Notes under the pieces: model-generated
What the model was told of the DNA's origin: nothing
The model's database searches: none
The model's input: only the letters and a program-made list of their open reading frames with translations
Assembly: GCF_024700885.2 (NCBI RefSeq)
Contig: NZ_CP117016.1
Length of the DNA stretch: 64,000 nt
Source: Escherichia coli
GTDB lineage: Bacteria > Pseudomonadota > Gammaproteobacteria > Enterobacterales > Enterobacteriaceae
Strand: one strand, 5' to 3'
Part shown: piece by piece, positions 21,752-25,371 of the stretch
Position numbering within the stretch: position 1 is the first letter of the stretch
Layout of the letters: every line of letters starts with the position of its first letter
Program-made: the position numbers and the translations under genes

Positions 21752-24273
21752 TCTGTTTCTCCATGAATTTTTACCTTCCCAAACTCAACTTTTACTACTG
21801 ACGGAATGGAGGTGTTGACTGGCGCTGTTTTACCATTTTCATCGGTGATCCCCTGTAGAATATCACCTTCAGCCGTTGTTAATCGATAAGGCGTCGAAGG
21901 TTGCGGCACTCCCGCTTCATCGGTAAGAATAAAACCGCCCCCAAACCCTCGCGGCATTTCAACAGACGCAATATCAAGACTTGTTGGTCCCATCTTCTGC
22001 ATATTCGTGCTTTTTAACAGAATCTGTCCCGGGCATCCCAGCTCAATATTTCCACCGCTTAGTTTGATATAAGCTCCACCACATGCCAGTATCAGTTCCT
22101 GATTAGCAGAAACAGTCACTTTGCCCTCAGAACTTTGAATATCAAGATTCTGTTGGGAACTCATTGACAAATCGTCACTTTGAGCCTGAATATTTACCCG
22201 CCCTTTTGCTGCTAACAGTTGCATCCCCTGGTTTCTGCTCAACAGGCTAACAGCACCTTCTGCTACAACTGTAAATGACTGCCCGGCAGTAATATCAGTG
22301 TTATCTCCCGACATTATGCCCACGCTTTCACTACCTGAAGCAATTCGTAACGCCCGCGCACTAACCATGCCAATCCCATCAGGAGCATGCAACAGCATTC
22401 CCGGCGCAGTGAGATCTGTTAGTGATGCATTCAACCGTTGCTGACAACTTATATCTCCCTGAGTAGCATTTGCAGCAGTTGCGGCCTTCGCCATACTTCG
22501 GGCCAGAGATAATGCCTGCTCCAATTGGCGGATAGCTTCATCCATATCCAGCATCTTTCCTTGTGCCTGAGGCTGCATATCTGCACTGATAAATATTCCT
22601 TTTCCTCCCCGGATACTTATCCAGTCATCAGTCCTCAGCTCAGCGCCTTCTCCCCTGAGTTCCCGGGAGGCATCAACGTTATGGCCAAGATTAAGTTGTG
22701 TCTTACCGCCATACTCGGTACTGAGCTTGATATGCTCCTCACCGCGTTTGTCCTCCATCCGCAACTTGTTATTTGCCGGCGTACGGATAACATTGCGCGT
22801 ACCGTTCTTATCGGTAACGTGATCAACATGACGTGAATCATGCAGGGCATGCGCTATATAGGGACGATCCGGATCACCTTCCTCAAAAGCAATGGCCACT
22901 TCCGTTCCCTGAATCAGCGGAAAATGAAAACCATAAGCATCACCACTGTAGGGTTTGGCCAGACGTACCGGCATACTTTCCTGTCCCGGATTTTTATCAT
23001 CACGGTCAGCATCAAATTTCACCCGGTACATGCCTGAAGCATCCTGCCAGGCGTAGATATCCCCTTCTTTTGCACTGGTCACACGGGCCGTCATGGTCCC
23101 GGTGATTTTCGGACGAGTAAGTAACGGTGGTCGCCAGCAGACAATCTCGCTGTAAGGAACAGCACTCAGCATCACCTGTAGCGCAGATTTCCGGCTACCG
23201 GTGAACAGAAGCTGCGTGAGCAGAACCGGCTCCTGTAACGGTGCAGGCAACACTGGTGGAGTACTGTCAGTAATAGTCAGCACCTGTGCCGGTAACAGAC
23301 TGGCATCGGTGCTTTTACCTGTGATACGTGTTTGCTCAGCCAGAAAACGCTCGTGATCGAGCCGGGCCCAGAAGTTAGCCGTCTCCGGCGCAGGGTCAAT
23401 TTTATCGCCCCTTTCTGTATGGCGTGGCCGGTAATGATAAACCTCGCCATAACTGGTGTCGTAACCTTCTCCACGGGTCATGTCCGCCGGTACGGACATC
23501 AGTATGTTCTGGGCCTCGCGGTGGTTATAGTCGTTCGTGATAACACGGCTTTCCACCACCCGGTGCTCCACATTCAATGCCCATACTGAGTCTGTGCCAC
23601 TGTCACTCATACCGGACGGGCTGTTAACGGGCAGTGTTTTATCAAATATCAACGCCGCCTGGACGTCACCGAAGTGGATCACCTCTGTCTGCGCATCCGG
23701 GTGCAACGTAAAGAAGTAAAAAATGCCCACTTCTGCCAGCAGGCGCTGGATAAATCTCAGATCGCTTTCCTGATACTGGTTAATCTGTTCGCGCTTCGGA
23801 TATGTCCTTTTGAGGCTGAACTCATACTCCCAGCCTTTCAGCCCGTGTTCCGTCAGGATTTGCTCCACCACCTCAGGCACTGATTTATTAACGAAAAAAC
23901 GGTGTGTACGGAACTGTTTATCCAGCAGGGAAATGAAAGGTTTAAGTGTGATCCGGTATTGTGCCTGGTCCTCAGAGCCAGAAATACGTCTGAAATCAGT
24001 AATAACACCGTGCACTTTTTTCTGTTCAGTCAGGCTTTCCAGTAATCCGGTTCCCATTATCAGGGTTGCGGATTTACGCAGGAACCAGGCAGCATCAGGA
24101 TACCTGTCCGTACTGGTAAAAATGATGTCATACCGGTAAATCTTACTTATGCCTTCAGTTCCGCTGAAATCTTCAACATCCAGCGATGACGGGCAGGAAG
24201 GTATATCCAGTCTGTAGCGGTTCAGGGTTCCCACCCCGGATAAAACATTTTGCAGGGAGTCAGTGAGATTCAT
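21748..24273 (-). CDS. vgrG: T6SS spike protein VgrG with C-terminal extension
   Basis: 841 aa; N-terminus MNLTDSLQNVLSGVGTLNRYRLDIP... and gp27/gp5-like repeats; extension beyond core VgrG length. Confidence 0.85.
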   Translation of the reverse strand: MNLTDSLQNVLSGVGTLNRYRLDIPSCPSSLDVEDFSGTEGISKIYRYDIIFTSTDRYPDAAWFLRKSATLIMGTGLLESLTEQKKVHGVITDFRRISGSEDQAQYRITLKPFISLLDKQFRTHRFFVNKSVPEVVEQILTEHGLKGWEYEFSLKRTYPKREQINQYQESDLRFIQRLLAEVGIFYFFTLHPDAQTEVIHFGDVQAALIFDKTLPVNSPSGMSDSGTDSVWALNVEHRVVESRVITNDYNHREAQNILMSVPADMTRGEGYDTSYGEVYHYRPRHTERGDKIDPAPETANFWARLDHERFLAEQTRITGKSTDASLLPAQVLTITDSTPPVLPAPLQEPVLLTQLLFTGSRKSALQVMLSAVPYSEIVCWRPPLLTRPKITGTMTARVTSAKEGDIYAWQDASGMYRVKFDADRDDKNPGQESMPVRLAKPYSGDAYGFHFPLIQGTEVAIAFEEGDPDRPYIAHALHDSRHVDHVTDKNGTRNVIRTPANNKLRMEDKRGEEHIKLSTEYGGKTQLNLGHNVDASRELRGEGAELRTDDWISIRGGKGIFISADMQPQAQGKMLDMDEAIRQLEQALSLARSMAKAATAANATQGDISCQQRLNASLTDLTAPGMLLHAPDGIGMVSARALRIASGSESVGIMSGDNTDITAGQSFTVVAEGAVSLLSRNQGMQLLAAKGRVNIQAQSDDLSMSSQQNLDIQSSEGKVTVSANQELILACGGAYIKLSGGNIELGCPGQILLKSTNMQKMGPTSLDIASVEMPRGFGGGFILTDEAGVPQPSTPYRLTTAEGDILQGITDENGKTAPVNTSIPSVVKVEFGKVKIHGETE

Positions 24274-24802
24274 GATTTATCACTCCACGAACAGCTCTGA
24301 AAGGGTATTTGCAGGGACCATGACGTTCGCTCTGGTCAGTCTGAACATTACTGCTTTTCAGCTCACCGTATGGCCTCACGACCTCCATGTCATTAAGCGG
24401 GATATCGAAAATACACCCGTCGGCAATCTCTATGCCGGCAACCATGATGCGCGGTGTGTCCTTATCGCACTCAGAGTGCAGAACAGACCTGACAATGAAC
24501 TGGCCTTTATCAGGAAAAAGACAGAATGAAGGCGGAATGCACAGCTGGCCGTTCACGATACGAAGCGAGGGTTCAGATGTAATTTGCCGCTCCCTGAATC
24601 GGGTTCCCCGTGGAGCGATGGAAACGCTGACTGGCTGGTAGTCCTCTGGCTCCGGGACACTGAAACACACATTGTCGCCTCTTGTGCTGACCGTTACTGT
24701 TTCATCAAACCGATAATAATCCCCGCGTCCGGGGCATCCTGTCAGTAACGTCAGACAGAGCAGTAAAGCAGAACGATAACGAAAGGCTCTTATTTTTACC
24801 AT
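24260..24802 (-). CDS. hypothetical lipoprotein (candidate immunity protein)
   Basis: Signal peptide and lipobox LLTGCPG; overlaps both the upstream HExxH gene and vgrG start. Confidence 0.5.
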   Translation of the reverse strand: MVKIRAFRYRSALLLCLTLLTGCPGRGDYYRFDETVTVSTRGDNVCFSVPEPEDYQPVSVSIAPRGTRFRERQITSEPSLRIVNGQLCIPPSFCLFPDKGQFIVRSVLHSECDKDTPRIMVAGIEIADGCIFDIPLNDMEVVRPYGELKSSNVQTDQSERHGPCKYPFRAVRGVINHESH

Positions 24803-25371
24803 GGGAACCCCCGCAACGTGCTGGTATACAGGCTGCGAATAACATACTCAGACATATTTCCGTCCAGTGTGATATCACCGTCCCTTCTCATATCACACCA
24901 TGTCCCGTATCCTTCAGCCTGCAAAGTAAAATGATCAGCAATAATTTGTGCCTGCTGCTCCATGGGATATTCGCTTAACAGACGCCCGTCCAGAACATAA
25001 CGGTAATTCACCGCCCAACTGAACATCCCCCGACCGATGACATTCATTCCCTTTTCACGCTGCCAGACATGCGCCATTTCATGAATAAACATATGCTGAT
25101 AAAAGGGAACGCTGAGTGAATAATCATCCCGATAGTGCTCACGGAAATAAATCTTACCATCGGGGGGCATGGCAGTTTGCTTATTCTGAAGACCAAAAGG
25201 CAGAAAACTGTCATGGTGGATCCAGACCTTTTCATAAGGGATTGTCAACCTGAATACCAGCCTCGCCAGCGCAATCTCTCCCGGCGTCAGTAACCGCAAT
25301 GAGCCTTCTTCCCTTTGATTTTTACCTGCGCCAGCGTCCTGATTTCTGCCATAGCCTGTCATAACGCGCAT
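24796..25371 (-). CDS. HExxH zinc-metallopeptidase-like protein (DUF4157-like motif), candidate T6SS effector
   Basis: Motif FIHEMAHVWQ; 191 aa; immediately after clpV and before a lipoprotein gene. Confidence 0.5.
   Translation of the reverse strand: MRVMTGYGRNQDAGAGKNQREEGSLRLLTPGEIALARLVFRLTIPYEKVWIHHDSFLPFGLQNKQTAMPPDGKIYFREHYRDDYSLSVPFYQHMFIHEMAHVWQREKGMNVIGRGMFSWAVNYRYVLDGRLLSEYPMEQQAQIIADHFTLQAEGYGTWCDMRRDGDITLDGNMSEYVIRSLYTSTLRGFPW

Follow-up and report, generated by a model that had tools for sequence, protein, structure and literature searches.

Within a 64,000-nt stretch of Escherichia coli DNA (contig NZ_CP117016.1 of assembly GCF_024700885.2; hereafter the window), we analysed two small genes lying between clpV and vgrG of a type VI secretion system (T6SS) cluster, which a preliminary description had put forward as a candidate effector-immunity pair. 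Window positions 24200-25450 were compared with E. coli genomes; coordinates without a locus prefix are those of the window, and the genes are on the minus strand. Their order on that strand is tssK, tssL, the OmpA-family gene tagL, hcp, clpV, a gene for a protein with an HExxH motif, a lipoprotein gene, vgrG, tle1, tli1 and PAAR. The region is 100% identical to that of E. coli BEC1-S17-ESBL-09 and MLI114 and 99.8% identical to that of enteroaggregative E. coli (EAEC) 042 and 55989, and by comparison with the annotated EAEC 042 locus the host cluster is Sci-1, or T6SS-1. We refer to the HExxH protein as Tpe (24796..25371; EC042_4531, WP_000148361) and to the lipoprotein as Tpi (24260..24802; 180 amino acids [aa]; WP_001403984, and EC042_4532 by position).

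The gene clpV (tssH; 25359..28025) lies immediately upstream of the pair and vgrG (21748..24273) immediately downstream; they are the flanks of a slot whose contents vary between strains. The end of Tpe and the start of Tpi overlap by exactly 7 nt (ATGGTAA; 24796..24802), the ATG of the lipoprotein lying inside the CCA-TGG-TAA end of Tpe, and the end of Tpi overlaps the start of vgrG by 14 nt (24260..24273). This arrangement agrees with the preliminary description in the position of both genes between clpV and vgrG, in the 7-nt overlap and in the lipobox-bearing lipoprotein that runs into vgrG. The length of 191 aa given there for the HExxH protein holds for the open reading frame (ORF) from its first ATG; the alternative start M4 at 25362, which is the RefSeq call and whose ATG overlaps the TGA of clpV as ATGA, yields 188 aa, and this is the likelier product because homologues align from M4. 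The 7-nt overlap indicates translational coupling of the pair, and on its sequence Tpe is predicted to be co-transcribed and translationally coupled both with clpV upstream and with the lipoprotein downstream. A scan for promoters and terminators along the clpV-to-vgrG stretch returned nothing above chance.

Tpe had no match in Pfam or NCBIfam, and Pfam remained empty even at E<=10. The route to its family was a search of PDB sequences, together with literature reached through the match of the lipoprotein to DUF7480. The single entry found by the PDB search was 6H56, the effector domain of Pseudomonas aeruginosa VgrG2b (6h56_A; phmmer E=7.9e-20, far beyond chance), which aligned over Tpe residues 25-156 with the HExxH motifs in register. 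The HEMAH motif of Tpe (H97, E98 and H101; 25069..25083) aligns with H935, E936 and H939 of VgrG2b, whose zinc-binding and catalytic roles are described in PMC6899460, and E138 (24958..24960), the third zinc ligand and the Glu of a gluzincin, aligns with VgrG2b E983 at the start of a conserved 'MEQQ' helix. All four residues are invariant in an alignment of Tpe with 11 homologues and the 6H56 fragment (A1) and are at least 90% conserved in a larger alignment of 85 sequences (A3). An AlphaFold2 model built from 85 sequences had a predicted local distance difference test score (pLDDT) of 89.9; in a Foldseek search of the PDB it again matched 6H56 (E=1.1e-9, probability 1.00, template modelling score ~0.6), with no other match below E=1. 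By sequence and by model, Tpe thus appears as a stand-alone homologue of the thermolysin-like gluzincin at the C terminus of VgrG2b, with a zinc site that is predicted to be intact. The gene also has the locus layout of the family, between clpV and vgrG with a small envelope-targeted ORF directly downstream, an arrangement seen in most of the 61 intact loci described below. Tpe belongs to the Tpe/VgrG2b C-terminal metallopeptidase family of T6SS effectors by sequence, catalytic residues and fold.

The lipoprotein likewise falls into a recognized family. Tpi scored 82.9 bits (E=1.8e-23) against NCBIfam NF045617, 'putative T6SS immunity periplasmic lipoprotein', for which the curated cut-off is 43 bits, and matched Pfam PF24295 (DUF7480) at E=1.1e-10; on these profile matches it is a member of the DUF7480/NF045617 immunity lipoprotein family. 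The preliminary description had been unable to match either protein to a known family, a statement that falls for both. The lipobox L-T-G-C occupies residues 20-23 (24734..24745), and its last residue, Cys23, is where the lipid is attached; the conserved tether there reads C-P-G-R-G-D. Pro, not Asp, stands at position +2, so we predict sorting of Tpi to the outer membrane; Asp at +2 occurs in none of 83 distinct Tpi proteins. In the Tpi alignment (A2), L20 and C23 are invariant and G22, P24, G27 and D28 nearly so, and the invariant cysteines are C23, the lipidation site itself, C46 and C88. The Tpi model is a confident DUF7480 beta-sandwich, with pLDDT >90 over residues 30-145, and a fold search of AFDB50 with this model returned DUF7480 proteins of Enterobacterales only, followed by CopC-like folds.

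The tether right after the lipidated Cys (residues 23-29; 24716-24736, minus strand) drew our attention separately. Tethers of lipoproteins are normally variable and floppy. That of Tpi is predicted to be disordered (pLDDT ~51), and it reads CPGxGD in 43 of the 83 distinct Tpi proteins, with Pro immediately after the lipidated Cys in 59 of them. Conservation this strong is unusual for a lipoprotein, and the tether may be a binding or pseudosubstrate motif.

Relatives of both proteins have been tested experimentally. Wood et al. 2019 (PMC6899460) defined the family of the VgrG2b C-terminal domain (VgrG2b C-ter) and its immunity protein PA0261, merged it with Tpe1-Tpi1 of Acinetobacter baylyi, and named as members the stand-alone SARI_02727 and the outer-membrane lipoprotein SARI_02726 of Salmonella arizonae; the outer-membrane localisation of SARI_02726 was shown in the same study. 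VgrG2b C-ter, from the P. aeruginosa H2-T6SS (PDB 6H56), has the same fold and the same HExxH-plus-Glu zinc site as Tpe; it is toxic to bacteria in the periplasm, and an immunity protein exposed to that compartment neutralises it (PMC6899460). Its T6SS-dependent delivery and the need of its periplasmic toxicity for the active site (E936A, H935A and H939A variants) have been shown, and it depletes membranes of lipoproteins and pulls down peptidoglycan-remodelling enzymes (PMC6899460). The two differ in delivery, the domain being fused to the spike in VgrG2b whereas E. coli Tpe is a free cargo protein. They also differ in length: the phmmer alignment with the VgrG2b domain stops at residue 156, whereas stand-alone Tpe proteins extend ~35 residues further, and these C-terminal residues are conserved among the stand-alone proteins, ending in an invariant LRGFPW. 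Tpe1-Tpi1 (ACIAD0053/ACIAD0054) is described as a stand-alone periplasm-acting metallopeptidase cargo with a downstream immunity gene (PMC6899460); Tpi1 is held in the inner membrane by a transmembrane helix, whereas the E. coli lipoprotein is predicted to have a lipid anchor in the outer membrane. Homology of DUF7480-type lipoproteins to PA0261 and Tpi1 was stated by Wood et al. 2019.

The closest tested pair is SARI_02727/SARI_02726, encoded in Salmonella pathogenicity island 20 (SPI-20) of S. enterica subsp. arizonae. In the type strain CCUG 6322T (locus L020) it occupies the same slot, in the order tssK-tssL-tagL-hcp-clpV-[pair]-vgrG, and consists of 189- and 154-aa proteins, exactly the sizes of SARI_02727 and SARI_02726; residue numbers H95, E96 and E136 agree between L020 and the published work (PMC12992299). 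Tpe is 64% identical to the effector (E=4e-84) and Tpi 43% identical to the lipoprotein over 146 residues (E=3e-43). The two pairs have in common a stand-alone effector of ~189 aa, the 7-nt overlap, a DUF7480 lipoprotein and equivalent catalytic positions; they differ in that E. coli Tpi is 26 aa longer at its C terminus (180 versus 154 aa), the extra part running into vgrG, and in that Tle1-Tli1 lies downstream in the E. coli cluster. SARI_02727 directed to the periplasm by PelB strongly impairs growth of E. coli, a defect that SARI_02726 relieves in part; SARI_02726 is needed for protection from wild-type sister cells, and the complex of the two is predicted by AlphaFold 3 with an interface predicted TM score (ipTM) of 0.87 (PMC12992299). 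In competition assays published in 2026, wild-type S. arizonae outcompeted a double mutant lacking effector and lipoprotein, but not a mutant lacking the effector only (PMC12992299).

On this evidence we consider it very probable that the two genes encode an effector and its immunity protein of the Tpe/Tpi type, a cargo module within the Sci-1 cluster (T6SS-1 of E. coli). The effector-immunity proposal of the preliminary description is thus supported by the family matches of both proteins and by the tested orthologous pair of S. arizonae in the same slot. The E. coli pair is a further member of a described family: the structure, the immunity logic and a 64%-identical orthologue have already been published, and NCBI already names the lipoprotein family as putative T6SS immunity. 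By analogy with VgrG2b/PA0261, Tpe1/Tpi1 and SARI_02727/SARI_02726, Tpe, which has no signal peptide, would leave the cell solely through T6SS firing, with Hcp or VgrG as its candidate carrier. It would then act in the periplasm of neighbouring Gram-negative cells, where zinc-dependent proteolysis may disturb envelope and division functions, while Tpi, facing the periplasm from its lipid anchor in the outer membrane's inner leaflet, would bind and block incoming toxin and so protect the producer and its kin.

We then asked how the slot is filled in other E. coli. Among 5,426 complete E. coli genomes surveyed, 91 carry a Sci-1-type clpV at an identity of at least 90%. The clpV-vgrG slot holds this pair at full length in 34 genomes and an unrelated pair (a 213-aa protein and a 75-aa protein with two transmembrane helices) in 36, and is empty in 24, with clpV directly overlapping vgrG. 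The empty state was seen in STEC316, Z1323CEC0017, GPEC484-624 and STW0522-31, among them a more divergent E. coli cluster of the same synteny; the unrelated pair is exemplified by E. coli strain 48. Conservation of both genes as structural components across this T6SS subtype, which the preliminary description had named as an observation that would count against it, was looked for, and what was found among E. coli is a slot that can be empty or otherwise filled. Because clusters of the same synteny have an empty or differently filled slot, the pair is not a structural component of the T6SS. In E. coli, in short, the cargo at the clpV-vgrG junction can be swapped, and the three states occur at roughly equal frequency.

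The block exchanged between strains comprises the last ~30 nt of clpV together with the pair (24205-25387) and the first ~1.2 kb of vgrG (~23074-24273), so that the first ~400 codons of vgrG fall within the variable block. Between strains with different slot contents, VgrG is 58-88% identical over residues 1-400 and 92-100% identical over residues 401-841. We considered whether the VgrG head is matched to the slot occupant and rejected this, as the heads found beside Tpe in 26 other loci are equally like both E. coli head types. Among the E. coli matches listed, the slot region of strains with the pair is 99.7-100% identical, and both reading frames are annotated as intact in all of them. In the alternative occupant of strain 48 (L002:6026-6891), the 213-aa protein contains a hydrophobic segment rich in glycine, and the 75-aa protein encoded after it has two predicted transmembrane helices. 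Neither has a Pfam match, and from its sequence this occupant looks like another undescribed effector-immunity pair, possibly a membrane-targeting one.

A search of one genome per species found 409 relatives; we examined 79 loci, 61 of which have an intact effector gene. In 49 of these 61, a lipobox ORF that matches the Tpi hidden Markov model (HMM) comes next; three further loci match the HMM without a clean start, and in six a lipoprotein is present but goes unrecognised by the HMM. An overlap of exactly 7 nt is seen again in 32 of the 61 intact loci, in other genera. ClpV lies directly upstream in 32 of the 61, and 25 of these also have VgrG downstream, whereas within 6 kb of 17 intact loci there is no core gene of the Sci-1 type. 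A second recurrent position is between tssA and tssF (L008:5950-6959 and L013:5989-6956, in Buttiauxella and Atlantibacter), and one Atlantibacter cluster has pairs in both slots, which are 71% identical in Tpe but only 34% in Tpi. More generally, Tpi is less conserved than Tpe in all 48 of 48 loci compared (median identity to the window 42% versus 62%), and extra Tpi copies occur in 11 of the 61 intact loci. Plant-associated and environmental Enterobacterales commonly carry members of the family. On a wider scale, a profile of the Tpe domain searched against 1.84 billion representative proteins found 2,914 clusters, in which the domain is always C-terminal; the architectures are stand-alone proteins, proteins of 280-450 aa (at least some of them PAAR-fused), proteins of VgrG length (~1,000-1,280 aa) and one of 2,668 aa, making this one of the more widespread T6SS toxin domains. 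We regard Tpe-Tpi as a cargo module that commonly resides in the clpV-vgrG slot across Enterobacterales, and all these observations mark a polymorphic toxin domain whose cognate immunity protein evolves fast, not a machine part.

For expression of the pair, two features upstream of clpV are relevant. A strong terminator-like hairpin with a 10-bp stem and a T-run (28153..28176) follows hcp, and just downstream of it, in the hcp-clpV gap, lies an ops element, GGCGGTAGCGTG (28048..28059), an exact match to the consensus of this RfaH loading site. The site matches the published ops1. This arrangement suggests attenuation after hcp that would be relieved by RfaH for clpV and the genes downstream. 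A published reporter placed between clpV and EC042_4531 found that ops1/RfaH-dependent transcription reaches this junction (bioRxiv 10.1101/2025.02.08.637259). The exact ops element and this reporter make expression of the pair plausible.

Several observations weigh against an effector-immunity module that is active in E. coli. The antibacterial activity of EAEC T6SS-1 has been attributed to Tle1 (PMC10715212, PMC6730261), and if Tle1 is responsible for the killing, Tpe may be of little consequence for E. coli K-12 in the laboratory. The toxicity of A. baylyi Tpe1 to E. coli is confined to low salinity (PMC6899460), which makes conditional efficacy of E. coli Tpe likely. For the S. arizonae pair, the rescue of E. 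coli growth by SARI_02726 was partial (PMC12992299). As to a relation of DUF7480 lipoproteins to PA0261-type immunity proteins, no Pseudomonas protein was among the AFDB50 fold matches of Tpi. The PAAR-Tpe fusion P0218, which shares 65% identity with VgrG2b C-ter, is followed by a signal-peptide ORF, and this ORF, taken in place of PA0261, reached an hhalign probability of only 0.2% against the Tpi profile. Finally, in the literature searched, EC042_4531 appears as a landmark only.

The attribution of killing to Tle1 (PMC10715212) would suit a module that is an evolutionary remnant, expressed but no longer contributing to competition in E. coli, as would the lack of this pair in about two thirds of the related E. 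coli clusters. We judge this highly improbable, however, since the lipobox is intact, as is every catalytic residue and conserved cysteine, the coupling signals are preserved, and the region is 99.7-100% identical with both frames annotated as intact among the E. coli matches listed. It is extremely improbable, in our view, that the pair is instead an accessory or structural part of the machine, for example an envelope-remodelling protease with a lipoprotein regulator that aids insertion of the apparatus through the cell wall. Tight translational coupling to core genes, the second recurrent position between tssA and tssF, and residence in the same clpV-vgrG slot in many genera of Enterobacterales (ClpV upstream in 32 of 61 loci, 25 of them with VgrG downstream) could be read in this way, but E. 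coli clusters of identical synteny do without the pair or hold an unrelated one, no core gene of the Sci-1 type lies within 6 kb of 17 loci, and the Tpe domain is found elsewhere in fusions with PAAR and as the C terminus of VgrG-length proteins. The extra copies and rapid divergence of Tpi fit immunity, and the competition results from S. arizonae, in which the wild type outcompetes the double mutant and not the effector-only mutant, are those expected for an effector-immunity pair (PMC12992299).

A different target is conceivable as well: Tpe might chiefly act on host cells, with the lipoprotein only a safeguard. VgrG2b has been described as a trans-kingdom effector and was first reported to help P. 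aeruginosa enter epithelial cells (PMC4453011, PMC12992299), and EAEC is an enteric pathogen. The host activity of VgrG2b, mapped by others, is not known to need catalysis by the C-terminal domain. The toxin has an immunity lipoprotein of its own that faces the periplasm and co-evolves with it, which speaks for a target in the periplasm of bacteria; the orthologue harms E. coli when placed in that compartment (PMC12992299), and the abundance of the family in plant-associated and environmental Enterobacterales points away from the host. A chiefly host-directed role is therefore very unlikely, although host-directed and antibacterial roles are not mutually exclusive.

Taking the pair as an antibacterial effector and its immunity protein, we also considered how immunity might be achieved. 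Tpe could be a protease of lipoprotein tethers from which Tpi protects by substrate mimicry, through its own tether C-P-G-x-G-D-R; the disordered, conserved tether would then sit in the active-site cleft of Tpe as an uncleavable decoy. Such a mechanism would tie in with the depletion of lipoproteins from membranes by VgrG2b C-ter. We regard it as unlikely, but if true it would supply a class of substrates for the Tpe family and make its mode of immunity an unusual one.

EAEC Sci-1 is among the main structural and genetic models of the T6SS, and one toxin alone, Tle1, is routinely given as the source of its antibacterial activity. Given a second intact, co-transcribed pair upstream of vgrG, killing and immunity experiments with Sci-1 may have an unaccounted contributor, especially outside standard media.

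The preliminary description had also called the HExxH protein 'DUF4157-like'. We rejected membership of Tpe in eCIS_core (PF13699), which we take to be the former DUF4157: the window protein has no Pfam match at E<=10, and its relatives stay sub-threshold, with 25 of 85 family members reaching E<=0.1 and one E<=0.001. The resemblance is a remote one, limited to a short zincin core of the HExxHxxQ type common to eCIS_core and the Tpe family.

Database names for the family are inconsistent. The E. coli copy is a 'hypothetical protein', whereas in NCBI and UniRef stand-alone homologues widely carry the name 'type IV secretion protein Rhs'. The latter is a misnomer, as these proteins have no Rhs repeats and no link to type IV secretion; both the E. 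coli annotation and those of other genera can be corrected.

Extra Tpi-like genes stand beside the pair in loci L006, L014-L017, L040, L044 and L053. Erwinia persicina (L040) has up to five Tpi ORFs, and L017 has two Tpe and four Tpi genes. These multi-Tpi loci resemble the orphan immunity arrays of other T6SS toxins. A divergent branch of Tpe (~50-57% identity), located away from Sci-1-type core genes, was found in Serratia (L059, L063 and L066) and in Erwinia, Rosenbergiella and Ewingella (L064, L067 and L071-L073). The accompanying lipoproteins are shorter (126-140 aa, with lipoboxes such as ISGC, LTSC and LASC) and match the Tpi HMM weakly or not at all, which suggests that the immunity proteins of this branch may have diverged beyond recognition or been replaced.

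Three further observations concern the surroundings of the pair in the window. The window strain has one copy of tli1 (19372-20049) versus two in tandem downstream of tle1 in EAEC 042 (L001:10352-11850). The window counterpart of the tssA-tssF slot (12248-13045, minus strand) holds an uncharacterised ORF, which in strain 042 is a 230-aa hypothetical protein. Directly downstream of PAAR, positions 17922-19070 (minus strand) encode a 382-aa hypothetical protein whose relatives accompany PAAR in other genera (L009 and L049; 43-57% identity), and in L049 a Tpe gene comes directly next.

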